From a virus (taxonomy: Duplodnaviria; Caudoviricetes), in IMG/VR virus record IMGVR_UViG_3300005582_000006, positions 1 to 64,000 of that record: a stretch of 64,000 nucleotides of DNA, one strand, 5' to 3'. Below are positions 4,021 to 28,822 of the stretch, in pieces. A model generated the notes under the pieces. That model was not told the origin of the DNA, ran no database searches, and saw nothing but the letters and a program-made list of their open reading frames with translations. The translations under genes were made by a program, and so were the position numbers. Positions within the stretch are counted from its first letter, which is position 1; every line of letters begins with the position of its first letter.

Positions 4021-4035
4021 TTGTATAATTATCAG

Positions 4036-4573: not shown

Positions 4574-4575
4574 AT

Positions 4576-6179: not shown

Positions 6180-6181
6180 AT

Positions 6182-6197
6182 TGGTGTATTAATTAAG
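6182..6197 (+). promoter_or_regulatory. Putative late promoter for the major tail protein
   Basis: TGGTGTATTAATTAAG in the intergenic gap. Confidence 0.55.
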
Positions 6198-6242
6198 TGA
6201 GGGTTGATTTTTGGACAGAATTTTATATGGGAGATTCATAAA

Positions 6243-7337: not shown

Positions 7338-7357
7338 TAGTTTGCAAACAAATATGT

Positions 7358-7390
7358 GGGCAGCAGGGAAACCTGTTGCCCCTTATTTTT
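7358..7390 (+). terminator. Rho-independent terminator
   Basis: Stem-loop GGGCAGCAGG-GAAA-CCTGTTGCCC followed by CTTATTTTT. Confidence 0.85.
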
Positions 7391-7401
7391 AGGAATATAG
7401 G

Positions 7402-8448: not shown

Positions 8449-8449
8449 A

Positions 8450-8815
8450 ATGGACATATATTCACAAATGGAAGATGCTTCTAACTTTTCTAAAAAGGAT
8501 GAAGAAAGAAATAGAAAAAAGTACGAAACTGAATCAAAAACAAGATTGCAAAAAATTATAACTACTAAGCTAAGAACATCATTTATTGGTGCTCTTTCTT
8601 CTTTTGAACAAAACTTCGGAGAGATTTGGGGATATGGAATAAGTGAAGCTGATTTAACTGACAAACAAAGAAAGTGGAGGGAACTATGGGATCTGTGTAG
8701 AACAAATGTTTTGAATAATGGCAATCATCAAATTAGATCTTGCGAAAATGAGATAATGCAGTATATTGTTTATTGGAACAGACACCAGAATATTCTTAAG
8801 CAAAAGGAGGATTAG
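8450..8815 (+). CDS. Hypothetical protein
   Basis: Start re-called at ATG 8450 after SD GGAGGT. Confidence 0.65.
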   Translation: MDIYSQMEDASNFSKKDEERNRKKYETESKTRLQKIITTKLRTSFIGALSSFEQNFGEIWGYGISEADLTDKQRKWRELWDLCRTNVLNNGNHQIRSCENEIMQYIVYWNRHQNILKQKED

Positions 8816-8817
8816 TT

Positions 8818-9690
8818 ATGAGTGTCACAAATAAGAAACAGTTTAAGGTGACTTTGGATAGTAAAGAAGTCGAACTTTGTGTTGTTCGACCTAATGTTAA
8901 GCAAAGGCAAGAAGGGCAAAAGATTTACAATAAGGCATTTAGAGATGCCGTTGAATCTGGTGCAATTCTTCGTGGTAAAGTCAATAATGTTATGCGAGAG
9001 CAGAATCTTTGGGATGATAACAAAGAAGCTGAATATCGTAAATTATTGGAAAAAATTAATGGGGCAGAAAGGAAGATTAAGTCTGGCGGTATTAAACTCA
9101 ATCAGGCTAAGGACTTAGCTCTTGAAATGAGGAAAGATCGTGCGGAACTTAGAGCTTTAACCTCTGAGCGATCATCCCTAGATAATAATACTGCTGAAGG
9201 TCAAGCAGATAATGCCCAATTCAATTACTGGGTTAGTTCATGTACGGTGTATTCAGAGACAGGGAAAACATATTTTAGTAATTATGAAGATTACTTAAAT
9301 AGAGATGACGATCCAGCAACTGGACAGGCAGCAGGAAGCCTTGCTATGTTGCTTTATAATCTTGATCCAGATTATGAAAAGAAACTACCTGAGAACCAGT
9401 TTTTAGCTAAATACAACTTTGTGGATGAAGAGTTGCATTTAGTTGATAAGACAGGGCGAAGGGTTGATTCTGAGGGTAGGCTAGTCAATAAGGATGGTAG
9501 GTATATTAGTGAGGCTGGTGAACTCATTGATATTCATGGTAATCGAGTTAACGAGGAAGGAGATTATGTTGTTGAATTCTCTCCGTTCCTTGATGACGAA
9601 GGTAAGCCAATCGAAGAAAAGATTGAGACTGTCAAAACAACGGCAGCACCAGAAATTGTTGTTGAAGCAGCTAAAGTTCCTGCTGAATAA
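8818..9690 (+). CDS. Putative tail assembly chaperone
   Basis: SD AGGAGG; acidic, coiled-coil; directly upstream of the TMP. Confidence 0.5.
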   Translation: MSVTNKKQFKVTLDSKEVELCVVRPNVKQRQEGQKIYNKAFRDAVESGAILRGKVNNVMREQNLWDDNKEAEYRKLLEKINGAERKIKSGGIKLNQAKDLALEMRKDRAELRALTSERSSLDNNTAEGQADNAQFNYWVSSCTVYSETGKTYFSNYEDYLNRDDDPATGQAAGSLAMLLYNLDPDYEKKLPENQFLAKYNFVDEELHLVDKTGRRVDSEGRLVNKDGRYISEAGELIDIHGNRVNEEGDYVVEFSPFLDDEGKPIEEKIETVKTTAAPEIVVEAAKVPAE

Positions 9691-9722
9691 GTCAAGAACT
9701 AAACGGACAGTATCGCATAGAT

Positions 9723-9782
9723 GGGCAGGGTTTAATCGTAGAAGTAACTACGCTTATGCTCTGCCCTTTTTTATTGAGGTAT
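9723..9782 (+). terminator. Long imperfect hairpin plus U-tract (terminator/attenuator) upstream of the TMP
   Basis: GGGCAGGGT..CGTAG-AAGTAA-CTACG..GCTCTGCCC followed by TTTTTT. Confidence 0.65.
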
Positions 9783-9786
9783 AAAA

Positions 9787-12700
9787 ATGGCTTTTAATCT
9801 GACTGCCAATTTAAATGTTGCTGTAAATAGTGGTGCTTTAAAAGCAGCAGCCAATCAAATAAATAGCACATTAGGAAGTGTGAACAGTTTAAAAATAGGA
9901 ACAAATTCTGCAACATTTGCTTCTCTTACTCCATTAAAAACTCAGCTTTCTGAGGTTACTAATTCCATAGAAAATTTTGGTAGGCAAGCTGGCTTTGCTG
10001 CTAAAAGATTTGCTGCATTTGCTGTGACTGCTGGTTCAATTATTACTTTCACTAACAACATTAGAGAAGCACTTTCTGCTGCTGTAGATTTTGATAGAGA
10101 GATGATTAGGCTAAGACAAGTCTCTGGAGATACGGCACAAGATGTTGCTGCTGTAGGTGAACAAATAACAGGTTTGTCTAAGGGTTTGGGTGTTTCAAGT
10201 AAAGATTTAGTTGGTGTAGCAGTAGTTTTAAAACAAGCTAACTTAACTCTTTCCGAAACTAAAGATGCTCTAGAGGCAATGGCACAAGCTGCTTTAGCAC
10301 CAAACTTTGATAACCTCAAAGATACGACTGAAGGTGCTATTGCTATCATGAAGCAGTTTAAGGTCGAGGCAAAGGATCTTGGTTCAGCTTTAGGTTCTGT
10401 TAATGCTGTAGCTGGCGAGTTTGCTGTTGAAGCATCAGATATTATTGAGGCGATTAGAAAGACAGGGGGTGCTTTTAAAGCTGCTGGTGGTAATTTAAAT
10501 GAGCTTATAGCCTTATTTACATCAGTACGACAAACGACAAGAGAAAGTGCCGAAAGTATTGGTACTGGCTTAAGAACTATATTTACACGAATACAAAGAA
10601 ATGATACGGCTAATGCCTTAAAAGAAATTGGTATAAATCTTAGGTATACCGCAGATGAAGCTAAAGCTTTAGGAGATGTTGGTTTAGAACAGCAATTTGT
10701 TGGTCCATACGAAGCTATTAAAAGGTTGTCCTCTGGACTTTCTGAACTAAGGTCAACAGATCCCCGATTTAGTGCCATTGTTGAGCAATTAGGTGGTTAT
10801 AGGCAGATCAGTAAGGTTATCCCACTTATTCAAGAATTTGCTACTGCACAGAAGGCATTAGGGGTAGCTCAAGCTGGTAGTGTGTCTTTGGCTGTTAATG
10901 CTGGTCAAGCACAGGATGCTCTTGCTGTAAAACTACAGAAGTTGAAGGAAAGCTTTTTTGAGGTTGGTAGAAGTATTGTTAATAGCCCTGGCTTTAGAAG
11001 TTTGGCTGATACATTCATTGGTGCTGCCACTTCGGTCTTGTCATTAATCAATTCACTTAAAGGTTTACTCCCATTATTTACTGCTCTCGCTGCTGTAAAA
11101 ATTGGTCAAAGTATTGGTTCTTTTGCCACAGGTTTTGTAAAAGGTGCTGGTGCAGATAATTCTTCTGCAAGAACAAATAAAAAAGCAGATGGCGGTTTTC
11201 TTAGGATGAGAACAGGGGGCATAGTGCCAGGGAGTGGAACTGGGGATAAAGTGCCAGCTTTGCTTGAGCCAGGTGAGTTGGTTGTGCCAAGGAGTCAAGT
11301 AAGAAGAACTAAATACTATAAAGCTGGTCCTGTAAAATTAGAAAAAGTAGGAGGTAAAAAAGATACATCGTCAATAAATACTCTGATTAATAATGATCTA
11401 GACAAAATGTTAAATAAAGAAGACACAATTTATATGGAAGTTGTAGAAAAAAAACAAAAATTATTAAGCGATGAACATAAAAAAGATATTTATTCTTCAT
11501 ATCGTTTGGAAGATTCAGATGCTGAATTGTATTCTGATCCAAATTTTCGACCAATAATGTACGCTTCTGACAACACAAAACCAAAAACAGTAATATCAAC
11601 AGCAGAAGCATTAGAGAAATATAAAACACAAAATCCAAAATTTAAAGAATTATCGATAGATTACTTAAAAAATTTAAAGAGAAAGATTGCTCCAGCAGAA
11701 GCTGCATGGGGGAAAAAATTTGAAAATATTACTCTTGAAAAATACAGTAGTACTATTCAAGCAGCTACAAGACCGACAATAAATGGCAAAATGGTTGCCG
11801 AAAGCACTTATCCAGTAGACACTGAAACAATAAGTCCTAGAAAAAGGAAATATGGAGACATTAAATTTAAAACTAGCAAAGAAGAAAATAATCATTTGTT
11901 AAGTAAACAATTAAGAGCAAAATTGTATTATAAAAAACCTGAAAAATTAGGCTTTAGTAAAAAACTAGGAGATAATGTTGATTTAGGATTATTTGAATAC
12001 TATGGTTCATATGATACAAAACAAAAAGGCAAAACCATACTAGGAGCAAAAGGAGATTTTTTACAATCATTACAAGATTTGCACAATCAAACAAAACCAA
12101 AACTTGCTCTAGGTGGACCAATCCCTCGCCAAAGATTCATGAATGGCAATAGTGTAGGACCAAAACCATTTCCACCAAATTTTTCCCCCGAAGAAATTTT
12201 AAATTTGGTCAAGGGCGTTATTCATACAGATGAAGTGATAAAGGGTGCATTTAGAGTTGCTGCAAAAATAAATCATCCAGACAAGAATCCTACTGCTAAA
12301 CCTAATGGCAACATGGAAAGAGTAAATGCTGCTCTTAGGACTTTATTAGATAGAAACATTCTTATAAGAGCAAGGGCTGAAGCTGGTCCAAAGACCACAG
12401 ATAATACTAGACGAAATACCTCACCACCACCGCCACCAAAAAGAAATGCTCAATCAGAAGATCAAATTTTTAGGGCTGTTTTTGGCGATGCTCCAACTAA
12501 AGACGAAGCAAGAAGTCAATGGAAAGGCACAAATCCAGAGACATTTACCAAACCAAATAGATTTGATAGTTTTGAAGCAGTTAGAAATGCTAGTCAATTT
12601 AGAGAAAAAGAAGAAGCAGCTAAAACAATGAACGCTTCTTCTGCATATAGTGACAGGCTAAGAAAAGCAAAAAGAGGATATGCTAATGGTGGAGATGTAG

Positions 12701-15700
12701 TTAGACAGAAATTTGCTAGTGGTAAGTTTGTTGCTAAAGATACAAAAGGAAATATTGTTCGTGATAGTGTTGATGGTGCAGACGAAGTTGAAATGGCTGC
12801 AAAGATTAGGCAGATGGGATACTTTGTTATATCTCTTGAGCTTGTTGCTGCCAAAAAAGCCTCACAACAAAAACTACAAGAAAGACAAGACAGAAGAGAT
12901 CAAGCAAAAGAAAGAGCGAAAGAACTTAGAAGATATTGGAATATGAATGAGACAGACACAGGTGACATTAATACATCTAGACCTCCAAAAAGAGGTAACA
13001 GTCTTGCAATAGAAGAATCAGAAAGACGAGAAGAAAATGCTAAAGGAATTGTTTTGTCTGGACCAAGTGGTGCTATTGCTGGAGGTATTACTGGTGCTGT
13101 TAGTGGTGCTCTTCTTGGTAATATTCCGGGGGCATTTATTGGTGGCACTTTAGGATTTGGTGCTGGAGCAGTTGGCGGTATGATGTATGACAAATCAAGA
13201 AAATCAGAAGATGAAAAAAATAAAGGTTTGGCTAGATTTTCTTATCAAGACGAACAGGGCAAAAAAGGAATTATTCCTGCTAGAGATAAAGAAGAAGCAA
13301 TAAGAAGATTGTCTTTTGATCGTATTACACCAACAAATATGCGGAGAGTTGCACCAGAAAGATCTTGGGGTGAATATCTCGAACAAAAAAGAAATGATAT
13401 TTTTGGTATAAAAAAAGCATCAATAGAAGAGACAAATAGGGAATCTCGTAGCCGTGAAAGAAAATTTAGTAAAAGCATAGGCAAAGGAGATGCCCCACCA
13501 ATAATGGTAAGGAAACCATCTAAAAAGACCAAAGAATCTAAAAAATATAGTGAAGATATATACAAGCCACTTCCTGCATTAGCATTAGATCCAACTTTAG
13601 GAAAATCAGTAGCAATCACAAAAGAAATGATGGAAGAAAGAAAAAAGGCTAGGGGTTTTGCTTCTGGTGGATTAGTACCAGGAACTGGCAATTCTGACAC
13701 AGTTCCAATGGACTTAGACGAAGGTTCGTTTGTAATTAAAAAGTCTTCAGTTAATAGCATAGGCATTGATAATTTAGCTAATGCTCACAAATTTGCATCT
13801 GGTGGTAAAGTTCCTGCATTACTCACGCCAGGTGAATATGTATATAGCCCTAGCGAAGCAAAGAAAATTGGTGCTAATAAACTTCATCAAATGAATAGTT
13901 TTGCAAAATTTAAAAAAGGTGGTGAAGTTGGTAATAGTATAGTTAGTGATACATTTTTAAATAGCCCAAACAACTTAAAGAAAATACTTTTAACATTAGT
14001 TGATCAAATAATGGAGTCAGATCCAGAAATATCAAAAAAAGATGCAAAAGCAGAAGCCACAAGAATTGTAAGTGAAATAAAAGTTCAAAATCAAACATCA
14101 AATCAAGCAATTGGAAATGTTGCTAGAGCAGATCAAGATATATCGGCAGAAAAATCAAATATTGGTGTTTTTAATAAAGAACTAAAGGGTTTTGGTAAAA
14201 CACTATCTACTTTAGGTAAAGAAGCAACTAGTTTAGCGGAAGCACTTCAGAAGAATACAGATGCAGCAGATGCTTCATATACTGCTGAATTAGAATTAAG
14301 GGCAAAGGGTACAGCAATAGTAGCTGCTAGAGATGCAAAAGTAGCAGCAGGACAAGATTTAACTAAAGAAAATACAAGGGTTGGATCTGCACAAACAAAA
14401 GTAAATGAATTAAAAGATAAAAAGAAAGACATGGAAGAGGCTAGACAAGCAAAAATAGATGCAGCAGATCAAAGAATTGCAGCAGCAGAACAAGCAAAAA
14501 TCACAAAAGAAGCTCAACCAGTAGATTTAACTCAAGAAAATAAAAGAGTTGTTTCAGCAAAACAAAAAGTCGATGATTTAAAGCAAAAAAAGAAGGACAT
14601 GCAAGAAGCGAAGCAAGCAAAAATTGATGCAGCGAGTCAAAGACTTGCAGAAGCAGAAGAAGCAAAAAGATTAAAATCTCAACAGCCAGTAAACTTAAAA
14701 AGTGAAACTGCAAAAGTTGGAAATATTACCGGAAGAATTTCTGTTCTAGAAGCAAGAAAAAAATCTAAATTAGATGCTGGTGAATCAGTTAGAGTTGTGA
14801 ATGCACAAATAGCAGAAGCAAAAAGACAAAGAGATGTATTGACAAAACAGATGGCAGATAAAACTGCTGCTGGACCTAACACAAAAAAAGAACAAGAAGA
14901 AATTGATAAAGCAAAAGAGGAATTAGCAAAAGCTAGTAAGCCATTAAAAACAAAAAACATAGACACAAAAATAATGAGAGCAGAAGATGCTCTTACGCAA
15001 GCTACTACTGCAAGAGACAACAAAGTTCCTAACACAAAAAAAGAACAGGAAGAAATCGATAAGGCGAAAGCAGAAAAATTGGAAGCTGAAAAACCATTAA
15101 AATCAAAAGCAATAGATGCAAAAATAACAAAAGCTGAAAGTGCTTTGACTACAGCAACAAACGCAAGAGATACCAAGGCAAGAACGGCAGTAGACACATC
15201 AAAAGAAGATGCACAAATTTTAAAGTTAAATCAAGATTATCAAAAACTTCTTGATGATAGAAATACAAATGCTCAAAATAGAGTGGCAATAGAAAATAGC
15301 ATTACTGCTGTTGGAACTAAACAATTAAATGTTCAAAATGAAATTTTAAAGACAGAACAAAACATAAAAGATGCAGAATCAAACATACAAAAAGCCGAAA
15401 CAGCAAAAGCAGCAGCAAAAGCATCAGGGGAAAAGGCCACTAGATCATTTCAAGTAAATGCAAAGGGTGAGATTGTAAATGAAAAAGGAAGGCCAATTGG
15501 ACAAACAAAGCCAATAACTACACCTGATTCAATAAAGCAAATTTCAAAACAAAGAGAAAAAGAATACGCTAAACAAAATGATGGTAAAGCCCCTAGAAAA
15601 AGCGAAAGAGAAGATATAAGAAGTGGAATAGTTAATGAATATAGAGTAGCAACAGAAAAACAACTTAGAGCAAAAGCACAAAAAGAAGGAAAACCTGTTA

Positions 15701-18700
15701 GCGAATTGCAAATCCAGTCTATGACTGATCAATACACTAAGCAGTTTGCTCAAGGAAAAAGAGGGGCAGTTTTTAATAAACAAGGTGAAGTAACAGGAGA
15801 TAAGTCTTTAGGATCAAAATTAATTAAAGGTGGAGATTATAAAGAAAGTGGCGATTTAACATTCCAAGGTAAGGTAAAAGATTTTGGAAGTAGAGCACTT
15901 TTTGGTTCAAAACGGACTGATTTTGAAGCTGGTTCAGAAGGAGAGAGACAGTTTAAACAAGATAGAGCATCTGGTTACGCCAATAGAATAACAACTGCTG
16001 CTGTTGGTGGATCTTTACTTGCTTCTGGAATGAGAGCAGAAGCACCAGAAGTTTCTTCTCTTGCAAAAGCAAATGAACAAGGAGTAGTTGTTGAAGATAA
16101 AGCACAGCAAGAAGCTTATAGGTCCACACTTCAATTTGCTGGTGCTATTGAAAAAGCTGGAACATATGCTGCTACTACTGCTACCGCTTTTTCGGCACTT
16201 GGGCCAGTAGGTACTCTTGTAGGCGGTGCTTTAGGTGCATTTGTTGGATTAATAAAAGGTTATGCTGATGGCACTAAAGAAGCAGAGGCACAAATAAGAG
16301 AAGTAAAGTTAGGTGCTGCACTAACAGGATTGCAAGGAACATTTGATAAATTAAATACTGGTTTAAGAACTTTTGATGATACTATTGCCGAATCAATTGC
16401 AGCAAATCAAAAAATTATTACTGAAGCAAACGCTGGAAAAGCATTCGTTGAAGCTGGTGGAGAGAAAAGTGGTTTTGATAGATTAATATCTGGAATTACT
16501 GGTGGCGGTTTTGGTGGATTTGATGTTAAAAAATTCAACGAATTAAATTCAAAAAGTCAAAAAGAAGCTGGTGCTGCACAAATAGTTCCACTTACGAACA
16601 TTTTAAATAAACAAGCCGAACAACTTGGTTCTAGTGCAGTAAGACAGGCTGGTGGAAATGCTGGAACATTAGACTATAAAGATTTTGCAGCATCATTAGA
16701 TACCAAATTAACTAGTGGCGGTGGTGGATTTAATAATGCACAAATACAAAAAATTGCTAATGCAAGAAATGTAAGCTTTGATGATGTTAAAAAAGAAATT
16801 GTAAAAGTAATGAAAGATTCTTTTAAAGCTGCACAATTAGAAAAAACTCAAAAAGAAGCAGTAACTGTAAATCAAAGATCTATAAATTCTATGGCATTAT
16901 TATCAGAAGCAGTTGTTGCTGCTGCTAATTCGGTAGAAAGTTTCTCTAATAGGTTAAGCACAAATGAGTCATTTTTTAGTGGCGGTATTGGATCAACAAA
17001 AGTAACTGGAATTTCTAATCAGTTTGATCAAAAATCAACTCCAGACTTTAATTCTTTTAATTCTGCCGTTTCTAAACTTTCTGATTCACTTGGAACTTAT
17101 GGCAATGAATTTAAGACTCAAGGAAATGCGATTAATGCAGCTTCACAAGCATTGCCTTCATTACTTGCTGGTGCAATAGAAGATCCTGTTGGTGGTCAAG
17201 ATATAGCCGTACAAATAGCTGCTGGTTTAAGAGAAGCTTTAAGTGCTCAAGGTATTAGTGGGGCTGGAGCAGATAGAGTCGTAAGTTCTGTTGCTGGAAA
17301 TGTATCTGGACAAGAATACACAAAGCTACTTGCTGAAGCTGGTGGCGATGTATCTAAAGTTGCAGAAAAACTACTTGGCAATATAAAAGACCCATTTTTA
17401 AATGCAGCTAAAGATATAAGTCAAAGATTAGAAAATGCAAGTAATCAATACATTAGTGGTTTAGAAAATTTAGCTCAAAGACAAAAACAAATTGGCGAAT
17501 CGTTTAAAAACTTAGAAAGTGCAAAACTACAGAGAGATAAGTTTACAGCAGAGACTGTTGCTACAAATGCTGGTTTGCCATCACAAGCAGGGAATTTGAT
17601 TTCAGTAGATAGACAAATGCAAGGCTTTAGAACAAATCAAGAAAGACTTACTGGAACCAAAGGAGCAGAAGCACAGGACTCCAGAGTAATTGGAGATAAC
17701 TTAAAAAGAACGCAAGAAAGAATTAGGGAATTAGAACCCAAAGTACAGAATGCTTCTGGTGCAGAAGGTGGTGGGGCTGCATTTAGAGGTGCAGCATCTG
17801 AGTTAGTTAAATTAAAATCAGAAGCTTCAAATTTGCAAGAGTCATTAAAGAATTTGGCAGATCAATCAAACAATCTTGCTATTTTGGAAGGCAAACTTGG
17901 TCAAGTAAGACAAGAAAGAGATAATGAAACTCAAAGAGGAAAAGAGTTTTTAACGGCAGATCCAAAAGAAAGACAAAAAATATTAAGAGATAGAGTTCAA
18001 GGACAAGGACTACTTAAACAAGCACAAGCTCAAGGTGGAAATGTAAGTAATTTTAGTTCTGGACAAAACAAAGCACTTTTTGCATTCTTAGATAGTTTTG
18101 GTCCAGTTGGAAAAGATATTGCAGACAACATTGTGCGTAATACTACTGGTTTAGGGAAAAAGAAACCAGAAGAAGATATGTTAGTTGGAAAATTAGCCAA
18201 AGTATATGACGAGCAAGTAAAAGCAAATCAAGAGTTAATTGGTAATCAAAGAAGTTTACAGACTGATTATTTTTCTCAGTTGACAAAACAAAATACTACA
18301 TTTTATTCAAACCTAGATAAATTTATTGCTGGCATGGAAAAAAGTCAAGTTCAAGATGAAAAAAATAGAGAAGTTGCAAAGTCTGCAAAAATAAAAGATG
18401 TTCAAGAAAAAAGTGGTTTTCTTAGAGAAGCTGGAGTAACTGATGAAAATCTAAAAGATGTTAATGCAAATAAAGGAAAAATATCAGAAGTAATAAAAGC
18501 AAGAGAAGCAGCAAAAGAAGAGGAAAAAAGATCTGTAAATATTAATGAGTCAATGAGAGAAGGTGATTTCGCACAATCTCTAGGAAGATCATTCACTAAA
18601 GATGCAAGAGAAGCAGATGCAGCAAAAGAAATTGGATCAAAAGGAGAAACATTAAATGACATACTTTCAAAAATAGGATTGACAGGAAAACAAAGCTCTC

Positions 18701-21700
18701 TAGTTCGTGAGCAAGCAACAATTGCTGTAACTCAAAATAAAGATTTAAACATAGAAGAAGCAATAAAAATAGCTATAAGACAAGTATCGGGTCAAACAGT
18801 TAATGATGCAGAAAAAAGAGTGAGTACAGCAGAAAAAGGTGCTGGAGCACTTGGCGTTAATATTGCCAATAAAGCACAAGAACAAGGAATAAGTGCAGAA
18901 AAGTTTGAATCTAGTCTTGCAGCAGTTACCGAATTAAATCAAGGTATTGGGGTAAAACTTACAACGGCAGCAAGTACTGCTACAGCAAATATTGATAGAT
19001 TATCTGCATCCATTAATAGTTTAGGGGCACAACAACAAGGTATTGCTCCAGTTAATGTAAATGCTAATCCTGCACAAGCAATTGGATTTGCAGTTGGTGG
19101 TCCAGCATTTTCCCCAAGAGGAACTGATACTGTTCCAGCAATGTTGACACCAGGAGAATTTGTAGTAAATAGAAGTGCAACACAACGAAATCTCCCACTG
19201 CTTCAATCTATAAATAGTGGAAAAACATCGTATTTAGCAGATGGTGGAGAGGTATTGGGAAAAAGAATAAAAGCATCAGAAGATGTAATGAAAATATGGG
19301 ATACCCCAGGATTAAAACAAGAAGAAAAAATAGCTTCAATTAGAAACATCATAAGCAATAAATATAATTCTCTTAAAGAGTCTTCTTTAACTAATGTTCC
19401 TAATGGAATAGAAGGCGAATCAAGAAAGTCTGCTGCTTCTGCAATATTGCAAGAGGTTATTTCATCTTTATCAATAGGTCAAATTCCAAAAAATGAAAGT
19501 GCTAAAAGGGTAATCGATAGCAATGGTGGAATTGAATCACTTCAAGATTTTGGAAATATTTTTGGTGATTTTAAAAGAAAAGGAGATACAGAAAATTCAC
19601 TAGGTTATAGAACAAAAGAAATAAATGATAATTATGAAAAAATTAAAAAAGAAATGTTAGATGAAAAGTTATTAGATCCAACAGAATCATATGAAAACTT
19701 TAAAAAAGATAATAAATATAATTATGAGTTATTATATAGCAAATATGATCCTGCAAACATAAGGACTGCCCTTAATAGTGTGATGATAGAAGCTGGTAGA
19801 GATGCAACAGTAAAAGAAAAAGTTGTTGCTGGATTACTTGGTGCTGGTTCTGCAATTATTGCTGCTCCTATCGCTATTGGTGGCGTAGCTCTTTCTGGTG
19901 CTGGAGCTTTAGGAGCGAGTATTAGTGGGGCTTCTGTTACTGCTGCTGGAGCTACAACTTATGGACTTGGAAAACTTATAATGTCAGAGTCCGCAGAAGA
20001 AAAAAAGAGAATGGATTTATTTAAATTGGATGCAGCAATAGCAGATCCAATAAACCAAGATAATACACATGGGTATTCTGCTGCTGTTTCAACAGGAGCA
20101 AATATTAAAAAGTTTGCAGATTTAGAAACATTGAATTCAAAAAAAGAATTTGCAGAAGGAATGAAAAGGATAAAAGAAGACTTTAATCATGTTTACAAAT
20201 ATGGAGTTTCTGGAAATGTTAAAACGCCAGGCTGGTGGGGAAAAACAAATGAAGAAAAAATGAATACTGATTTATTAAAAGAAACATGGTATTACAAAGG
20301 AACTAATGGTGGTGCTATAGATGTAGCAAAAGATGGCTATACATGGCCAGGTATTCAAAATTATAGTGGTGAAAAGGTTAATACTTTTATTCAGCCCCTT
20401 ATTGATAAGGCAAATGCTCCAGATCCATCAAACGCACAAAAAATAAAAAATTACTTAAAAAGAAAAAATATATCTGATAAAACATATTTAATTCCAGATG
20501 ATTTAAATGATTTAAATCAATTTATTGTAAATCCAGAATATTTAAAAAGTTTAAATGCTGCTGGCACTAAAGATATAGATGCTAATATAGATGCTAAAAT
20601 ACCACAATATATTGCAACAATAGCAAATTTAAAAGCACAAAAGAAAGACATTGTTTCAGAAAAGAAACAAGAAAATATAGTTGCCAACATTGCAAACGAA
20701 GAAGGCACAACGCCCATAGATACGCAGATAAGAATGGCAGAGAATGAGGTTCTTGCAGCAAGAGGGAATAAAGAATTAGAATCTAAGAAAAAAGCAGAAT
20801 TAGAAATATTAAAACTAAGAAGAACAAGCTATAACCAAACTGGATTAACATCTAATGAAAAGTTAAGAAATGCTTATGGTCAAAATAGACCAGAAATAGA
20901 TAAGAGCTATGTTGAATCTAAAGCTTATCTTACTCAAATAAAAGAAGGAACTGGAGAGAAGTTTGTCGCTACAGATATGGGCAAAGAAGACGAGCTTTTC
21001 TTAAAGAGACAGGGCGATGCAGGAAGATTAGCACAAATAGGTTTAAGAAGAGAAGTGCAAGCTAGTGCTATACTTGGCAAAATGGTAAAGCTAAAAGGTA
21101 TTTTTGCTAAAAATCAAGGCGAAGAATTAAACAAAAAAGAATTTGCTGAAATTGGTAAAGATCCAAATCAATTAATACCTTTAGGCTTAAAAGAATACAA
21201 TAATTTATACAGTGGACAAAAAGGAAGTTTAGCAAAAGAAGACTTTGATAATCCTAAACTTATACTTCCATTCCAAAAAGAAATTGTTGGATCTTTCTTT
21301 AAACAACAAGCAAGCACAAGATCTTTAGCAATAAGTGGTAAGGGTCTTCTTGACTTTATTGATCAATATTCAAACATAAAAGACACTAAGGGTTTTGTTG
21401 AAGCAAAGGTAAAACAAGCTGGACCAGATGCTATACCTTTAGTTGTAAGGGCGATAGAAGAAGGAAAAATAAATGCGTTGAGCGTTCTTAATGCAGCAGC
21501 AGCAAATGTTGGTGGTATAAGCAGAAAGAGCTTAGAAGGTGCTATTGGAAGAAATAAAGACTTTAATCTATTAGATAAGCTCTCCGAAAAACAAGAAGGA
21601 AAAGCACAAAAAATTGTTAAACCATTCTCTGGAATTGATTTTATAGAAGGTGAAGATGGTGCTTATGCAACTATAAAGGCAGTAAGTGGAAAAGGTCAAG

Positions 21701-24700
21701 TTTCGATGTCTGCCAATAATACCGCATTAAGAATAGCTGCTCCTTACTTGCCAAAATCAATTTATAAACAAGATATTCTTGCTGGAGAAGCATATAACAA
21801 TGATGGATTAAAAAAATTGGCTGGTGATAGACCAACATTGGGAAGTCCTAATAGCTCTTTCACATTTCCAGCAGATGGGCCAAGTCTTTTTACTACAGAA
21901 GATTTTTTAAATGCTGTAAGTAATTCACAGGGGTACGCAACTATTTCATCAAAAGCAGTAGTTGTAGAAGAAGATGTTGAAGGTAAGAAACAAAGAAAGA
22001 TTGATTATAAAAGAAATTTAGATGTTGCAAATATTGAAAATTCTAAAACTAGAGAGGCGATGAAAAATCGTTTAAAGCGTATAAATGACATAGAGGGAAT
22101 TAATAAACCGAATCAACCAGAAGAAAATAAAAATGTAGTTAAAGGAGAACCCAATGAATTTCAAGCTGCAATTATAAAAGAAAAAAATGAACAGAGTGCT
22201 CTTGCAGCTAGACTACCTAGAGCAACCAAAGAGCAACAATTATTTGAAGGCCAATACGGAGAACTAAGTGTTGAAAGTCGATTAAATAGGGGTGAAATAA
22301 CTAGAGAAGAAGCAGCAGCACAAATAGAACGACAAAGACAAGCTAGAAAAATGTCATCTGGTGGAATAGTAAACTATCTTTCATCTGGTGGTGTTCCTAG
22401 TCATAGTCCTAATCCTGATCCTTCGTTCTTTAAGCCTAAAGGTACAGATACAGTACCAGCTATGCTTACGCCAGGTGAGTTTGTAATAAATGCCTCTGCT
22501 ACTGCTAAACATGGCGATTTATTAAGTGCTATAAATAGTGGTAAAGATGTTGGATATTCTGCTACTGGTGGAATAATTTATTTAGAAGATGGTGGAGAAG
22601 CAAGAAAAAAAGCATTTTATGAAAAAATGAATAAGCGAAAAAATGACGAAGAAAAATTAAGATATTTAGTTGATGATAAAGATAAAGATAAAAATACCTA
22701 CATGCAAGACAGAAAAGATGATTTAGAATCTACTGCTAATAGGGCAACTCAAACTTTTTCTCGTAGGCAGAACCAATTTATACAAGATGAAGACAAGAGC
22801 AATAATGCTGGAACAGAAATGGTTTTTAATGCTATGGGGATGACTGGACTTGCAAAAGCAGGAATATCTGCAATTTCAAAATTTGCAATGAGTCCATCAC
22901 TTAACGCTGCTGGTCAGGGAGCAAAAAATATTGGGAAAAACTATTTTAAATACGAAGCACAAAATCAAGTGCAAAACACAGGTATAGATATTTTTAAGTC
23001 AAATGCGGAAAAATTACTTAGATATGCAAGCGGTGGATTAGTAAGTTATTTATATGATGGTGGATACTTAAAAAGAAGAGCAAACTTAGCTTCTTATAGT
23101 GGCAGTGAAAATGAATATGTTACAGATCAAGAAGAAGTTGGTAAACAAAATACGGCAAATATAACCAATAGAATAGCAGCAAAGAATCAAGCTGAAAACA
23201 ATGCATTTCAAATGTTTTCTAACATTAGATTTAATGACGGAACTGGTAGTCTTTTTGACAATACACAATCTGGATTTTCTACTGGATCTGGTGGTGTTTC
23301 TGCTCAACAAGCACTATCTTTTCAAGATCCAACTAAGCCTGGTGGAGAAGGCATAACATCAGCAGCAATGGGTATGATTGGAGATGTTCAATCCAGAATG
23401 AAGGGTAATAAAAATCCATATGGAAATATTTCTGTTACTGGTGCAGAATTAAACGAATTAAAATCTGCAAAAGCAAATGAACCAGAAATACAGAAGAGGT
23501 ATGATGAATATAAAAAGTTTATAGAAGAACAAAAAAAACAACAAGAAGAAGAATCTGGTAGTACATATGCAAGTTTGGGGGGATTGATTTATGCTCAAGG
23601 TGGACTTTATCTTCCTCGTAATAATTATAGACCATATGTTTCAATTCCAGATAGCAGTTACACAGGTAGCGGAGGTTACTTTGGTGATAATGAATCTATT
23701 AATAATGGTGGGGGTTATTTTGGTGAAAGTGGAGATAAAATAGAAAGACAACAAAAACTTTACGAAATTCAAAAGAAAAAACAAAAAAGTCCTCGTTACC
23801 TACAAGCAGAACAATATCAACAACAACAATTTCAACTTAGAAATCAAGCATATCAATCACAACAACGAAAATCGCAAAATCCTAAACGACAACAACAGCC
23901 AGAACAATGGCAAATAAATTGGCAACAACAGCAACAAGCAAGTGGATATAAAAATCCATATGCAGCATTGCAATCAAAACCAATGTTTCCAGAACAGAGA
24001 CAACAACAATCAGAAAATTTTCAAAATCAAAGGGCATATCAAGCAAAGCAAGAAATGTATGGCGGTCCTAGTGCCCAACCAGTATTTCAAGCAAGTAACT
24101 ATGCAGGAAGTTTCTTTAATCAAGTTCCACAGCAACAACAAGTAGCACAAGACCCAAAACGAAAACAATTAAGTTTGTTTAGAATGAATCTAGGGTCATA
24201 TAGTTCTGGTGGTAATGTAGATACTATTCCAGCTATGTTAACTCCTGGTGAGTTTGTAGTAAATAAACAAGCATCATCTAAAAATTATTCTTTATTACAT
24301 GCAATCAATAGTGGCAAAGAAGTTGCTAGATTTAAAGATGGTGGTAGCGTTGGAAATATTCGTGGAAGAAAAGTAGACCCAATAGAATCTGGAATAAGTC
24401 TATTAGCTGGTAAGCTATCTGGAGTTGGAAATAAATTTATTGAGAGTGGAGATTCATTCAAGACTGGAGCAAATGCTAATAGGGAAGGATCACAAAACAT
24501 ATTGGCTTCTTCATCAAAGTTTAATTCTGGAGTTGGAAGTTTTGCTGATTCTGCTACTAAAATATCAAAAAGAAAGGGCTATAATTCTGGTGGTCTGGTA
24601 AACTATTTTGCAGATGGTGGATTCACACCAAGAGGCACAGACACTGTTCCCGCTATGCTGACACCAGGAGAGTTTGTGGTAAATAGACAATCAACATCTA

Positions 24701-25119
24701 AAAATTTAAATTTATTAAAAAATATAAATGGAAATGCTAGTTATATGTCTAATGGTGGAGTTATGTATGCTAGAAGGGGTGCTTTTGTTGGAAATTCATC
24801 GCAAGACTCATCTCCAGCAATAGATATGACTTCAGTTACAGAATTAGCTAATGCAATAAGTACATTAGGAACTACATTTCTCAAACCTTTTGGTGAACAA
24901 GTAGATGCATTTAAAAATTATGCTGAAGCTTTACAAACACAAATCAATAAAATACCAACAGTAGTAAGAATAGAAGTCATGGGTAGTTTAAATGCTGCTT
25001 TAAATATTGACTTTAATCCAGATGGCGTATATACAGCGGTAACACAAGCAACGCAAGAATTACAAGGGTTTATAATTGCAGAAATAAATAAACAACTTGG
25101 AAATGATATGAGAGCATAA
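9787..25119 (+). CDS. Giant tail tape measure protein (5110 aa) with embedded cargo domains
   Basis: The N-terminal ~460 aa match the TP901-family TMP core (AVDFDREM, NAVAGEFAVEASDI, ESAESIGTGLRTIFTRI). Long Ala/Lys/Gln coiled coils; canonical position after the tube and chaperone genes. Confidence 0.9.
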   Translation: MAFNLTANLNVAVNSGALKAAANQINSTLGSVNSLKIGTNSATFASLTPLKTQLSEVTNSIENFGRQAGFAAKRFAAFAVTAGSIITFTNNIREALSAAVDFDREMIRLRQVSGDTAQDVAAVGEQITGLSKGLGVSSKDLVGVAVVLKQANLTLSETKDALEAMAQAALAPNFDNLKDTTEGAIAIMKQFKVEAKDLGSALGSVNAVAGEFAVEASDIIEAIRKTGGAFKAAGGNLNELIALFTSVRQTTRESAESIGTGLRTIFTRIQRNDTANALKEIGINLRYTADEAKALGDVGLEQQFVGPYEAIKRLSSGLSELRSTDPRFSAIVEQLGGYRQISKVIPLIQEFATAQKALGVAQAGSVSLAVNAGQAQDALAVKLQKLKESFFEVGRSIVNSPGFRSLADTFIGAATSVLSLINSLKGLLPLFTALAAVKIGQSIGSFATGFVKGAGADNSSARTNKKADGGFLRMRTGGIVPGSGTGDKVPALLEPGELVVPRSQVRRTKYYKAGPVKLEKVGGKKDTSSINTLINNDLDKMLNKEDTIYMEVVEKKQKLLSDEHKKDIYSSYRLEDSDAELYSDPNFRPIMYASDNTKPKTVISTAEALEKYKTQNPKFKELSIDYLKNLKRKIAPAEAAWGKKFENITLEKYSSTIQAATRPTINGKMVAESTYPVDTETISPRKRKYGDIKFKTSKEENNHLLSKQLRAKLYYKKPEKLGFSKKLGDNVDLGLFEYYGSYDTKQKGKTILGAKGDFLQSLQDLHNQTKPKLALGGPIPRQRFMNGNSVGPKPFPPNFSPEEILNLVKGVIHTDEVIKGAFRVAAKINHPDKNPTAKPNGNMERVNAALRTLLDRNILIRARAEAGPKTTDNTRRNTSPPPPPKRNAQSEDQIFRAVFGDAPTKDEARSQWKGTNPETFTKPNRFDSFEAVRNASQFREKEEAAKTMNASSAYSDRLRKAKRGYANGGDVVRQKFASGKFVAKDTKGNIVRDSVDGADEVEMAAKIRQMGYFVISLELVAAKKASQQKLQERQDRRDQAKERAKELRRYWNMNETDTGDINTSRPPKRGNSLAIEESERREENAKGIVLSGPSGAIAGGITGAVSGALLGNIPGAFIGGTLGFGAGAVGGMMYDKSRKSEDEKNKGLARFSYQDEQGKKGIIPARDKEEAIRRLSFDRITPTNMRRVAPERSWGEYLEQKRNDIFGIKKASIEETNRESRSRERKFSKSIGKGDAPPIMVRKPSKKTKESKKYSEDIYKPLPALALDPTLGKSVAITKEMMEERKKARGFASGGLVPGTGNSDTVPMDLDEGSFVIKKSSVNSIGIDNLANAHKFASGGKVPALLTPGEYVYSPSEAKKIGANKLHQMNSFAKFKKGGEVGNSIVSDTFLNSPNNLKKILLTLVDQIMESDPEISKKDAKAEATRIVSEIKVQNQTSNQAIGNVARADQDISAEKSNIGVFNKELKGFGKTLSTLGKEATSLAEALQKNTDAADASYTAELELRAKGTAIVAARDAKVAAGQDLTKENTRVGSAQTKVNELKDKKKDMEEARQAKIDAADQRIAAAEQAKITKEAQPVDLTQENKRVVSAKQKVDDLKQKKKDMQEAKQAKIDAASQRLAEAEEAKRLKSQQPVNLKSETAKVGNITGRISVLEARKKSKLDAGESVRVVNAQIAEAKRQRDVLTKQMADKTAAGPNTKKEQEEIDKAKEELAKASKPLKTKNIDTKIMRAEDALTQATTARDNKVPNTKKEQEEIDKAKAEKLEAEKPLKSKAIDAKITKAESALTTATNARDTKARTAVDTSKEDAQILKLNQDYQKLLDDRNTNAQNRVAIENSITAVGTKQLNVQNEILKTEQNIKDAESNIQKAETAKAAAKASGEKATRSFQVNAKGEIVNEKGRPIGQTKPITTPDSIKQISKQREKEYAKQNDGKAPRKSEREDIRSGIVNEYRVATEKQLRAKAQKEGKPVSELQIQSMTDQYTKQFAQGKRGAVFNKQGEVTGDKSLGSKLIKGGDYKESGDLTFQGKVKDFGSRALFGSKRTDFEAGSEGERQFKQDRASGYANRITTAAVGGSLLASGMRAEAPEVSSLAKANEQGVVVEDKAQQEAYRSTLQFAGAIEKAGTYAATTATAFSALGPVGTLVGGALGAFVGLIKGYADGTKEAEAQIREVKLGAALTGLQGTFDKLNTGLRTFDDTIAESIAANQKIITEANAGKAFVEAGGEKSGFDRLISGITGGGFGGFDVKKFNELNSKSQKEAGAAQIVPLTNILNKQAEQLGSSAVRQAGGNAGTLDYKDFAASLDTKLTSGGGGFNNAQIQKIANARNVSFDDVKKEIVKVMKDSFKAAQLEKTQKEAVTVNQRSINSMALLSEAVVAAANSVESFSNRLSTNESFFSGGIGSTKVTGISNQFDQKSTPDFNSFNSAVSKLSDSLGTYGNEFKTQGNAINAASQALPSLLAGAIEDPVGGQDIAVQIAAGLREALSAQGISGAGADRVVSSVAGNVSGQEYTKLLAEAGGDVSKVAEKLLGNIKDPFLNAAKDISQRLENASNQYISGLENLAQRQKQIGESFKNLESAKLQRDKFTAETVATNAGLPSQAGNLISVDRQMQGFRTNQERLTGTKGAEAQDSRVIGDNLKRTQERIRELEPKVQNASGAEGGGAAFRGAASELVKLKSEASNLQESLKNLADQSNNLAILEGKLGQVRQERDNETQRGKEFLTADPKERQKILRDRVQGQGLLKQAQAQGGNVSNFSSGQNKALFAFLDSFGPVGKDIADNIVRNTTGLGKKKPEEDMLVGKLAKVYDEQVKANQELIGNQRSLQTDYFSQLTKQNTTFYSNLDKFIAGMEKSQVQDEKNREVAKSAKIKDVQEKSGFLREAGVTDENLKDVNANKGKISEVIKAREAAKEEEKRSVNINESMREGDFAQSLGRSFTKDAREADAAKEIGSKGETLNDILSKIGLTGKQSSLVREQATIAVTQNKDLNIEEAIKIAIRQVSGQTVNDAEKRVSTAEKGAGALGVNIANKAQEQGISAEKFESSLAAVTELNQGIGVKLTTAASTATANIDRLSASINSLGAQQQGIAPVNVNANPAQAIGFAVGGPAFSPRGTDTVPAMLTPGEFVVNRSATQRNLPLLQSINSGKTSYLADGGEVLGKRIKASEDVMKIWDTPGLKQEEKIASIRNIISNKYNSLKESSLTNVPNGIEGESRKSAASAILQEVISSLSIGQIPKNESAKRVIDSNGGIESLQDFGNIFGDFKRKGDTENSLGYRTKEINDNYEKIKKEMLDEKLLDPTESYENFKKDNKYNYELLYSKYDPANIRTALNSVMIEAGRDATVKEKVVAGLLGAGSAIIAAPIAIGGVALSGAGALGASISGASVTAAGATTYGLGKLIMSESAEEKKRMDLFKLDAAIADPINQDNTHGYSAAVSTGANIKKFADLETLNSKKEFAEGMKRIKEDFNHVYKYGVSGNVKTPGWWGKTNEEKMNTDLLKETWYYKGTNGGAIDVAKDGYTWPGIQNYSGEKVNTFIQPLIDKANAPDPSNAQKIKNYLKRKNISDKTYLIPDDLNDLNQFIVNPEYLKSLNAAGTKDIDANIDAKIPQYIATIANLKAQKKDIVSEKKQENIVANIANEEGTTPIDTQIRMAENEVLAARGNKELESKKKAELEILKLRRTSYNQTGLTSNEKLRNAYGQNRPEIDKSYVESKAYLTQIKEGTGEKFVATDMGKEDELFLKRQGDAGRLAQIGLRREVQASAILGKMVKLKGIFAKNQGEELNKKEFAEIGKDPNQLIPLGLKEYNNLYSGQKGSLAKEDFDNPKLILPFQKEIVGSFFKQQASTRSLAISGKGLLDFIDQYSNIKDTKGFVEAKVKQAGPDAIPLVVRAIEEGKINALSVLNAAAANVGGISRKSLEGAIGRNKDFNLLDKLSEKQEGKAQKIVKPFSGIDFIEGEDGAYATIKAVSGKGQVSMSANNTALRIAAPYLPKSIYKQDILAGEAYNNDGLKKLAGDRPTLGSPNSSFTFPADGPSLFTTEDFLNAVSNSQGYATISSKAVVVEEDVEGKKQRKIDYKRNLDVANIENSKTREAMKNRLKRINDIEGINKPNQPEENKNVVKGEPNEFQAAIIKEKNEQSALAARLPRATKEQQLFEGQYGELSVESRLNRGEITREEAAAQIERQRQARKMSSGGIVNYLSSGGVPSHSPNPDPSFFKPKGTDTVPAMLTPGEFVINASATAKHGDLLSAINSGKDVGYSATGGIIYLEDGGEARKKAFYEKMNKRKNDEEKLRYLVDDKDKDKNTYMQDRKDDLESTANRATQTFSRRQNQFIQDEDKSNNAGTEMVFNAMGMTGLAKAGISAISKFAMSPSLNAAGQGAKNIGKNYFKYEAQNQVQNTGIDIFKSNAEKLLRYASGGLVSYLYDGGYLKRRANLASYSGSENEYVTDQEEVGKQNTANITNRIAAKNQAENNAFQMFSNIRFNDGTGSLFDNTQSGFSTGSGGVSAQQALSFQDPTKPGGEGITSAAMGMIGDVQSRMKGNKNPYGNISVTGAELNELKSAKANEPEIQKRYDEYKKFIEEQKKQQEEESGSTYASLGGLIYAQGGLYLPRNNYRPYVSIPDSSYTGSGGYFGDNESINNGGGYFGESGDKIERQQKLYEIQKKKQKSPRYLQAEQYQQQQFQLRNQAYQSQQRKSQNPKRQQQPEQWQINWQQQQQASGYKNPYAALQSKPMFPEQRQQQSENFQNQRAYQAKQEMYGGPSAQPVFQASNYAGSFFNQVPQQQQVAQDPKRKQLSLFRMNLGSYSSGGNVDTIPAMLTPGEFVVNKQASSKNYSLLHAINSGKEVARFKDGGSVGNIRGRKVDPIESGISLLAGKLSGVGNKFIESGDSFKTGANANREGSQNILASSSKFNSGVGSFADSATKISKRKGYNSGGLVNYFADGGFTPRGTDTVPAMLTPGEFVVNRQSTSKNLNLLKNINGNASYMSNGGVMYARRGAFVGNSSQDSSPAIDMTSVTELANAISTLGTTFLKPFGEQVDAFKNYAEALQTQINKIPTVVRIEVMGSLNAALNIDFNPDGVYTAVTQATQELQGFIIAEINKQLGNDMRA
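14356..15170 (+). repeat. Tandem coding duplications in the TMP coiled coil (168-nt and 153-nt periods)
   Basis: DLTKENTRV, DLTQENKRV and NLKSETAKV start at 14356, 14524 and 14692; PNTKKEQEEIDKAK starts at 14875 and 15028. Confidence 0.8.
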
Positions 25120-25131: not shown

Positions 25132-26187
25132 ATGGCAAATTATATTGTATCTGGTGCTGGCAGTGGAGGGAACTTTAATGGCACATTTGTGTTTGCCAGC
25201 GGTTCTTTATATGAAAACAGCGTAGATTCAAATTATGTGCTGGTTTATGACTCAGGATTATCTCAGTGGACTATTCGTCATTTTTCAAGCGTTTATTACT
25301 ATAATACTGCAAGTGCAGGAAGTCCACCGCTAACAGGATGGCTAACATCATTAGGTTCAGCACCAGCACCAACAATAGCAATTGTTCCACCGCCAAAACT
25401 ATTTGGCATAAGAAATTTATTTTTAAAATCTGCTTTTGAAAACACTGTTTCTTTATATATAAAGTCTTCTGTATTTGATGCCAATATATTGCCATTACAT
25501 TTAAAGGTAAATACTCAAGAGCAAACAGACTTATATTTAAAAGCTTCTCCACAAAGTTCAATTAATTTATTCATAAAATATTGGTATGAACATCAAGACA
25601 ACCAAGAACTTTACTTAAAAGCATTTTTAGAAGCATCAACTAATTTATTTATAAAAAACATAAATTTATATACTGAATTAAATAATTCTATTGATTTGAA
25701 TATTCGATCATCAACAATAGATCAAAAAGCAGACAGCGTAGAATTTTATATAAAAGCACTTTTTAAAAATAGCCTAGAATTATTTTTGATGGTAAATGAT
25801 AGAGCATCAACAACAAACTTTATTCATGTATATATATCTGGACAAGTAATAAATTTAGCTTATTTTGAAAGTTTAAACCTTTATTTGAGCAATGACTACA
25901 CATTTATTAATAACTCGTTAAATATTACTATAATTGGTCTTGGAACTACATTTAATGGAATACCAAGCAATTCATCTATGAACATGTTTATACAAAGAGA
26001 TGTTGAAGCAACTTGGAATTCTGTACCATTAATAGCTTATGGTGCTTCTCCTGCAATAACTAGCAGTATTGACTTTAATATATATCCAAGTGACATTTAT
26101 TTTTATTCAGTTAGGTTAATAATTCCAAAAGTAAATCAACCATTCAATGAAAATATGCAATTATACACTCATGGTTTTGAGGATTAA
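25132..26187 (+). CDS. Tail-associated protein with about 18 short L-(Y/F)-(I/L)-K-type repeats
   Basis: Repeats NLFLKS, SLYIKS, DLYLKA, NLFIKY, ELYLKA, EFYIKA and others; follows the TMP. Confidence 0.6.
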   Translation: MANYIVSGAGSGGNFNGTFVFASGSLYENSVDSNYVLVYDSGLSQWTIRHFSSVYYYNTASAGSPPLTGWLTSLGSAPAPTIAIVPPPKLFGIRNLFLKSAFENTVSLYIKSSVFDANILPLHLKVNTQEQTDLYLKASPQSSINLFIKYWYEHQDNQELYLKAFLEASTNLFIKNINLYTELNNSIDLNIRSSTIDQKADSVEFYIKALFKNSLELFLMVNDRASTTNFIHVYISGQVINLAYFESLNLYLSNDYTFINNSLNITIIGLGTTFNGIPSNSSMNMFIQRDVEATWNSVPLIAYGASPAITSSIDFNIYPSDIYFYSVRLIIPKVNQPFNENMQLYTHGFED

Positions 26188-26189
26188 AC

Positions 26190-27545: not shown

Positions 27546-27554
27546 GAATAATTT

Positions 27555-28814: not shown

Positions 28815-28822
28815 GTGAAAAA

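Follow-up and report, generated by a model that had tools for sequence, protein, structure and literature searches.

A giant tape measure protein with recurrent joints and exchangeable segments in an uncultured phage, a candidate carrier of tail-delivered cargo

A stretch of 64,000 nucleotides (positions 1 to 64,000 of the IMG/VR virus record IMGVR_UViG_3300005582_000006; hereafter the window) was analysed in this study, with a focus on a single giant gene that encodes a protein of 5110 amino acids (aa). By its sequence this protein, the query, is assigned as the tail tape measure protein (TMP) of an uncultured long-tailed phage. Seven copies of a conserved element of approximately 60–70 aa, here called the joint, are distributed along its chain, and the sequence between neighbouring joints differs among relatives by exchange or deletion, the changes ending within the joints. 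One of these inter-joint stretches in the query contains a predicted J-domain, and related giant proteins carry putative enzymes instead. We lean towards the view that the TMP delivers functional cassettes into the host.

Identity of the protein and its recurrent joint

The window represents the start of one 76,246-bp contig with a G+C content of ~33%. The TP901-type TMP family (PF10145) was identified at aa 125–337 of the query (E = 1.2e-23; 84.5 bits against a Pfam cut-off of 33.2), and nine PHROGs TMP families match its first 500 residues. Matches to cultured phages are limited to aa ~80–456 and fall in TMP or SPbeta yomI-type genes of 41 records, all with less than 60% identity. A preliminary description of this DNA had proposed a 5110-aa giant TMP with a TP901-type core to position ~11160; both the open reading frame (ORF) and an N-terminal core with PF10145 were found, this core being conserved to ~11166. 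All three close relatives cover this N-terminal core (N-core), as do 93% of the 15 mid and 90% of the 98 far ones. Membrane-type hydrophobic segments are located at aa 410–438, 2134–2160 and 3344–3381.

The joint profile was built from repeats found by comparison of the query with itself and matches the seven query copies with E values from 1e-18 to 1e-32. Each copy follows the pattern FAxGG ... DTVPAMLTPGEFVVN ... GGxV, and shorter GG motifs are present besides. The general layout consists of basic-x-[FY]-[AS]-x-GG, a variable loop, (G)TDTVPAMLTPGEFVVN, a short helix ending in LL..IN.GK and finally [FY]-x-x-GG-x-V. Self-comparison and profile together confirm the initial claim that linker motifs alternate with unrelated segments along the chain. 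The gene, its conserved ends and its joints are as follows (window coordinates, strand, feature).

9787..25119, plus strand: TMP gene of the query (P0001), 5110 aa, from the ORF list and translation
9787..11166, plus strand: conserved N-core, aa 1–460, with PF10145 at aa 125–337 and a hydrophobic helix at aa 410–438
11176..11373, plus strand: joint 1, aa 464–529 (joint profile E = 1.3e-18)
12112..12141, plus strand: short type-B joint GGxIxRQRF, aa 776–785, found by regular expression in the query and 20 of 22 relatives
12688..12717, plus strand: second type-B joint, aa 968–977, with G509 and G510 invariant in alignment A1
13639..13968, plus strand: joints 2 and 3 in tandem, aa 1285–1331 and 1331–1394 (E = 3e-18 and 2e-21)
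19072..19290, plus strand: joint 4, aa 3096–3168 (E = 1.1e-32)
22336..22632, plus strand: joint 5, aa 4184–4282 (E = 1.8e-28)
23026..23622, plus strand: two short YASGGL-type GG motifs, aa 4414–4430 and 4595–4612, which bracket a 164-aa segment
24184..24381, plus strand: joint 7, aa 4800–4865 (E = 1.2e-28)
24574..24801, plus strand: joint 8, the last one, aa 4930–5005 (E = 1.2e-31), placed like the single joint of lambda gpH
24802..25119, plus strand: C-terminal end, aa 5006–5110, presumed from its position to be the segment that binds the tail tip

Within the 76-kb contig, joint matches are restricted to the TMP ORF (one of 358 stop-to-stop ORFs). Joints were detected in 121 of 121 giant proteins (query included; 3–9 copies each), a set chosen by similarity to the query and largely via the joints themselves; no joint was found in the 121 shuffled controls. 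The last joint of the giant proteins is a median of 155 aa away from the C-terminus. The tandem of joints 2 and 3 (aa 1285–1394) is covered in 100% of the 15 mid and 82% of the 98 far relatives. Because the joint copies of the query share just 66–84% DNA identity, the element appears to be conserved as a peptide and not copied by recent gene conversion. The type-B joint at aa 776–785 contains G317, G318, R322, Q323, R324 and F325 as invariant positions of alignment A1. No match to the joint was found among PDB sequences, and a model of the isolated joint monomer gave no confident fold (mean predicted local distance difference test, pLDDT, 58.8; one short helix).

Exchange of the segments between joints

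Giant relatives were searched among proteins of 2,810–8,943 aa, which yielded 226 matches at E ≤0.001 among 1,303 scored candidates. Full-length close relatives measure 4941–5273 aa despite their swaps, and mid relatives 4149–6532 aa. The pattern of exchange was derived from chained BLAST against 22 relatives and from a coverage table of the 98 far and 15 mid relatives, in which joint coverage is inflated among the far relatives, as these were recruited via the joints themselves. Most inter-joint segments are covered in just 0–13% of the far relatives. Representative values for parts of the query are given below.

N-core: 90% of far and 93% of mid relatives
Full joints: 82–93% of far and 91–100% of mid relatives
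Central block, aa 1851–3095: 13% of far and 100% of mid relatives
J-domain: 0% of far and 41% of mid relatives
Slot 1: 11% of far and 29% of mid relatives
Bay 2a: 4% of far and 7% of mid relatives
Gln-rich block: 5% of far and 4% of mid relatives

The clearest replacements were identified directly behind joint 1.

11320..12111, plus strand: slot-1 cassette, aa 512–775, an orphan that is replaced in relatives P0002, P0003 and P0004

P0002 and P0004 share 93–95% identity with the query as far as aa 532 and 83–92% from aa 772 onwards, and have an unrelated 115 aa where the query has 239 aa; slot 1 of P0003 comprises 577 aa. For all three relatives, identity of the flanks is 93–95% upstream and 79–92% downstream. 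Across 18 proteins, slot 1 is occupied by six unrelated families, none of which is linked to another by BLAST beyond the tail of the joint, and the hhalign probability is ≤3.6% for all 15 pairs of families. A D-x(8-14)-[DE]-x-K pattern was noticed by eye in three of the six; with a best hhalign value of 3.6%, a common fold is not claimed.

Further towards the C-terminus, the two YASGGL-type motifs lie ~180 residues apart in the query, P0003 and P0004. In P0002 and P0005 a single hybrid GG motif stands at a 174-aa deletion and the segment between the motifs is gone, which indicates that these short motifs are the actual end points of rearrangement. That linkers persist while cargo varies, as had been predicted at the outset, is therefore borne out by the alignments of relatives, the coverage table, the slot-1 swaps and the hybrid GG motif.

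The slot-1 cassette of the query is 89% and 87% identical, almost without gaps, to its counterparts in P0010 and P0011, compared with 87% and 83% for the core. Since it is as conserved as the core in these two relatives, it appears to behave as a constrained protein and not as filler. No family was found for it in Pfam, NCBIfam or PHROGs, and no Atlas match scored above 0.78; a HMMER search of 1.84 billion representatives returned one partial match (E = 5e-5), and 14 pattern matches in IMG/VR contigs included none that was confirmed. Its model, from an alignment three sequences deep, has a pLDDT of ~30. The preliminary description had read aa 515–772 as nuclease-like; the discrete cassette is real, but the YqaJ match (E = 0.041) lies below the cut-off and no NCBIfam family was found, and the nuclease label was dropped because no profile or fold match identified the cassette, in which a D...[DE]xK-like pattern was noticed by eye only. 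The different slot-1 cassette of P0002 gives a weak staphylococcal-nuclease hint (E = 0.021).

A predicted J-domain in the first bay

Behind the first type-B joint, a J-domain was predicted in the query.

12157..12384, plus strand: J-domain, aa 791–866, with HPD at aa 830–832, from Pfam, NCBIfam, the structural model and fold searches

Among NCBIfam models, those for DnaJ align through their J-domain portion alone (E = 2e-4). We modelled aa 460–1300 from an alignment of 16 proteins (mean pLDDT 42.8), and within this model, in which just the J-domain and the small unit at aa 1140–1191 are confident, the J-domain reaches pLDDT 70–88, with the HPD loop lying between predicted helices at aa 815–829 and 842–865. 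The best Foldseek rows were almost all J-domains at a probability of 0.99, with E values of just 0.01–0.3 for this long query. VIA, which is independent of Foldseek, gave Z scores of 8.7 (root-mean-square deviation, rmsd, 3.2; 74 aligned) and 8.4 to J-domains, which is middling for a helical unit; the Z score to Tim16, part of the mitochondrial import motor, was 7.3, with an rmsd of 2.1 over 60 residues. The J-domain named in the preliminary description (aa 798–866) is thus supported by its HPD motif, by the pLDDT and by the top position of J-domains in both fold searches, and is the sole supported cargo identity in the query.

Ten of the 16 aligned proteins contain the J-domain, seven with HPD and three, close relatives, with HSD. 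The other six have another module at this position, several of them with HELGxH. No free-standing J-cassette was found among proteins of 112–359 aa or of 360–2000 aa by a word-based search, which is a weak test.

Putative enzyme cassettes in giant relatives

Some of the related giant proteins contain recognisable enzyme domains. ADP-ribosyltransferase, an effector-type enzyme, was identified in two distant relatives: in P0089, in three stretches (E = 1e-44), and in P0112, in one. In P0089, a 3,862-aa TMP, the three ADP-ribosyltransferase-exoenzyme stretches are located at aa ~880–1450 together with a weak NAD:arginine ADP-ribosyltransferase match, which suggests that this protein carries a tandem array of effector-type enzymes. 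Of the 121 relatives, 49 contain HExxH and 15 contain HExxxH, each count dropping to one of 121 after shuffling; the query contains neither peptidase motif.

A cassette with RHELG[GA]H, an HExxxH variant, recurs at aa ~450–1330 of P0003, P0010, P0011, P0013, P0015, P0017–P0019 and P0021, where it follows the same GGxIxRQRF joint that precedes the J-domain of the query. This variant resembles one described for polyvalent-protein metallopeptidases; the segment of P0003 that contains it matches no Pfam family. One sub-clade (P0007, P0008, P0012 and P0014) has a conserved VKHEHxH ~40 aa from the C-terminus that is absent from the query and may bind metal.

The joint in other phages

A profile of 722 joint copies matched lambda gpH once, at aa 732–786 of 853 (29.1 bits, E = 7.8e-9), while the best of 200 shuffles reached 4.6 bits. 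The joint core, taken from joint 5 of the query, matches annotated TMP genes in 115 cultured-phage records, among them 76 of Gordonia, nine of Nodularia and eight of Burkholderia phages. By profile, no joint was detected in T5 pb2, which is a cleaved TMP, or in P23-45 gp96. The joint thus appears to be an old TMP element that is single in lambda gpH, near the C-terminus, and multiplied in the query.

According to a recent report, lambda gpH is cut at about residue 690–710 into gpH* (approximately residues 1–710) and gpHC, by a mechanism and at a site described there as unknown (PMC12617516). Residues 818–849 bind gpI at the tail tip and ~690–817 were not resolved (PMC12617516), so the joint at 732–786 falls in the unresolved start of gpHC, just past the cut. 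It begins some 20–40 residues after the approximate cut, which is the sole link of the joint to cleavage. This tie rests on one case, because neither the cleaved T5 pb2 nor P23-45 gp96 shows a joint.

Proposed delivery of cassettes and alternative explanations

The protein is organised as a conserved backbone into which variable bays are set, each fenced by a ~60–70-aa joint or a shorter GG motif; the backbone comprises the N-core of TP901 type, the C-terminal end and, between them, a long helical central block that contains membrane-type segments. The tail tube of other phages is occupied by the TMP, which has its C-terminus at the tip and leaves the particle ahead of the DNA (PMC12617516, PMC10770324); in lambda, labelling from ManZ, a protein of the inner membrane, reaches gpH during injection (PMC13190303). 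If the query is arranged in the same manner, with its C-terminus at the tip of the tube and leaving ahead of the DNA, the N-proximal bay 1 (aa 510–1285), behind the N-core, would exit last, adjoining the DNA end. Each virion would therefore bring three to six copies of this bay to the inner membrane or cytoplasm. At that site the J-domain could engage host DnaK, a step that would refold or draw in the extended chain with its cassettes, or else retune the chaperone capacity of the host. Activity of the cassettes may not require their detachment from the TMP; cutting at the joints would be possible but not needed.

Several points weigh against delivery. Most inter-joint sequence has no recognisable family, and the model of aa 460–1300 is confident for just ~130 of its 841 residues; elsewhere, the slot-1 cassette and joint 1 included, pLDDT is ~30 on a shallow alignment. 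The J-domain itself matches Pfam DnaJ (PF00226) with E = 5.2e-5 and 23.7 bits, below the 27.8-bit cut-off, and HSD in three close relatives may mean that DnaK activation is dispensable. The inflated joint coverage of the far relatives also belongs here. Folded domains cannot fit folded in the lumen of the tail tube, so cargo would have to travel extended. Delivery of the cassettes is extrapolated from TMP biology, and their activity and cleavage are putative.

Three other readings overlap with delivery and with one another. The chain might be a pure ruler that sets the length of a very long tail, its inter-joint stretches free filler and its joints pegs for the tail tube, an assembly chaperone or the register of the chain. 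A tail grows by ~0.15 nm per TMP residue, which corresponds to ~0.75 micrometre for the query. A ruler would suit the inter-joint sequence without family or confident fold, the tandem duplications typical of length change, the 4941–5273 aa retained by close relatives despite swaps and the 5,002-aa TMP of P23-45, to which the great length of that phage's tail has been attributed (PMC10770324). We nevertheless regard a pure ruler as unlikely: the term filler does not suit a J-domain with HPD, ADP-ribosyltransferases and HExxH modules, conservation of the orphan slot-1 cassette equals that of the core, and mid relatives span 4149–6532 aa, so total length is only loosely constrained. Alternatively, the inserts, the J-domain among them, might serve assembly, recruiting DnaK in the producing cell to keep a 560-kDa chain soluble and thread it into the tail, without being effectors. 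The J-domain is indeed the only confidently identified insert, no frameshifted chaperone pair is recognisable upstream of the gene, and the J-cassette, found in no free-standing form among proteins of 112–2000 aa, seems tied to giant TMPs. Such an aid would, however, leave both the ADP-ribosyltransferase cassettes of relatives and the fast turnover of the neighbouring slot unexplained, and the HSD variants argue against an essential DnaK step, which makes this explanation doubtful.

Equally improbable in our judgement is a true polyprotein, the strict form of the preliminary proposal, in which every joint is a proteolytic site and cargo becomes free either within the virion or during entry. 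The single joint of lambda gpH, starting at aa 732 behind a cut at ~690–710 (PMC12617516), points in this direction, as do polyvalent proteins, thought to be processed by built-in zincin-like peptidases (PMC5512222), and the HExxH or HExxxH motifs of many relatives. The query, however, has neither motif, the cleaved T5 pb2 and likewise P23-45 gp96 have no detectable joint, the lambda link is one case of proximity, and the isolated joint has no confident fold that would suggest self-cleavage. A more far-reaching version, to which we give very little credence, would make the joint a processing or hinge module that governs the gpH to gpH* cut; its multiplication would have created a true injected polyprotein, whose J-domain would recruit DnaK as an import motor, like Tim14/Tim16 with mitochondrial Hsp70, to pull in the chain and perhaps the leading DNA end and to refold released cassettes.

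Comparison with known systems

Lambda gpH resembles the query in having one joint near the C-terminus, like the last joint of the query, and its C-terminal residues are at the tail tip (PMC12617516). With 853 aa, one joint, no bays and no known enzyme it differs from the query, which has seven joints and several variable bays. The 5,002-aa TMP of P23-45, gp96, contains an active virion RNA polymerase in its N-terminal 1,200 residues (PMC10770324), so the earlier statement that the extras of TMPs are usually only peptidoglycan hydrolases is too narrow. This giant TMP has its enzyme in the N-terminal part, where the query has bay 1, but it represents one fixed fusion with no detectable joint, whereas the cassettes of the query are exchangeable. 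P23-45 gp96 was absent among the matches of cultured-phage searches with the query and the joint core. TMPs with peptidoglycan-hydrolase motifs (mycobacteriophage TM4 and T5 pb2) likewise contain extra functional motifs; these are single cell-wall enzymes for which no joint-fenced exchangeable slots are known to have been described, and T5 pb2 has no detectable joint.

Polyvalent proteins are large injected polypeptides that mix unrelated domains, such as ADP-ribosyltransferases, nucleases and zincin-like peptidases with HEXXXH forms among them (Iyer et al., 2017), and for which processing is proposed to follow delivery (PMC5512222). Of such domains, just the J-domain is identified in the query, and ADP-ribosyltransferase and HExxH/HExxxH modules in relatives. 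Polyvalent proteins differ in being delivered from the head or by conjugation, and the query has no peptidase motif. The main text of PMC5512222 contains neither "tape measure" nor "DnaJ", while its supplements may list TMP-type architectures. Sle1-type effectors of actinobacterial contractile injection systems (PMC13277306) are also related to TMPs and have exchangeable functional domains in a tail-like particle, but these are bacterial injection systems and not phages, and they are likened here by description and not by sequence.

J-domain co-chaperones such as DnaJ, Tim14/Tim16 and the polyomavirus T antigen share with the query the HPD loop between two long helices. Rki of phage RB43 is reportedly also a J-domain co-chaperone. 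Different from all these, the predicted J-domain of the query lies inside a virion structural protein, without a G/F or substrate-binding region. In a literature search that mostly covered less than the full text, and no supplements, neither cassettes fenced by joints nor a TMP with a J-domain was described.

If delivery of the bays is real, long tails would serve generally to carry interchangeable, ready-made proteins that act within the first seconds of infection. Tail cargo would then include chaperone recruiters, ADP-ribosyltransferases and peptidases, which would extend the single known case, the virion RNA polymerase of P23-45, to a large uncultured class. Lambda provides a handle on how and where its TMP is cut, since the conserved 55-residue element just behind the approximate gpH cut is accessible to mutation in this laboratory phage. 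As the slots between joints accept unrelated inserts, they could also serve as natural insertion sites for engineered tail cargo.

Other segments of the protein and genomic neighbourhood

The remaining segments of the query are listed below.

12724..12861, plus strand: small alpha/beta unit 1, aa 980–1025 ("PilC-N-like" 1), pLDDT 48–71, no family
13069..13194, plus strand: glycine-zipper hydrophobic segment, aa 1095–1136 (Pfam Gly-zipper_Omp E = 0.011, below the cut-off)
13204..13359, plus strand: small beta-beta-alpha-beta unit 2, aa 1140–1191 ("PilC-N-like" 2), pLDDT 63–85, no family
14336..15176, plus strand: two tandem duplications in an Ala/Lys-rich helical region, 2 x 168 nucleotides and 2 x ~150 nucleotides (repeats D2 and D4)
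15337..19071, plus strand: central conserved block, aa 1851–3095, with a hydrophobic segment at aa 2134–2160
19291..22335, plus strand: bay 2, aa 3169–4183, with a variable part, a weakly conserved middle (aa 3734–3985) and a variable end
23764..24186, plus strand: Gln-rich block, aa 4660–4800, 30% Gln by composition

Unit 2 is formed by strands at residues 690–696, 701–706 and 723–729 of the modelled fragment and a helix at 709–718. The PilC-N-like label proposed for aa 980–1018 and 1149–1188 found no support, as no NCBIfam family matched at E ≤10 and no profile linked these units to PilC/GspF; the rows of the fold search were filled by the J-domain, so this unit was barely probed by fold. 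For the proposed glycine zipper, a weak signal exists (E = 0.011, with a SlyB match at E = 0.024), which does not reach the Pfam cut-off. Other features anticipated from the sequence were recovered: direct repeats corresponding to the tandem 168-nucleotide and 153-nucleotide repeats in the helical region, which as protein self-matches are 52% and 72% identical; the hydrophobic stretch of the ~1000-aa block, located at aa 3344–3381; and the Gln-rich block at aa 4660–4800 with its 30% Gln.

The central block is ~40% identical in all 15 mid relatives. Coverage of the three parts of bay 2 in these relatives is 7%, 61% and 30%, and no match to this bay was found in Pfam or PHROGs (aa 3001–4200) or in Atlas (aa 3434–4188).

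None of the 14 proteins that flank the TMP gene (window positions 1–9786 and 25132–35467) matches any PHROG, and the 76-kb contig has no recognisable terminase, portal or capsid gene; its structural module thus appears to be very divergent. The contig is probably incomplete, because these genes are not recognisable and one relative is located on a 148-kb contig. A 290-aa ORF (8818–9784) lies directly upstream of the TMP gene and is overlapped by a 96-aa frame (9494–9784). The usual frameshifted tail-chaperone pair is not evident, since no slippery heptamer was detected ahead of the TMP gene and the 96-aa frame does not resemble coding sequence. The only Pfam match among the neighbours of the TMP gene is a glycosyltransferase: a 599-aa ORF at 2221–4020, on the strand of the structural genes, has an N-terminal family-2 glycosyltransferase domain (E = 5.7e-13), which is unusual for a site upstream of tail genes.

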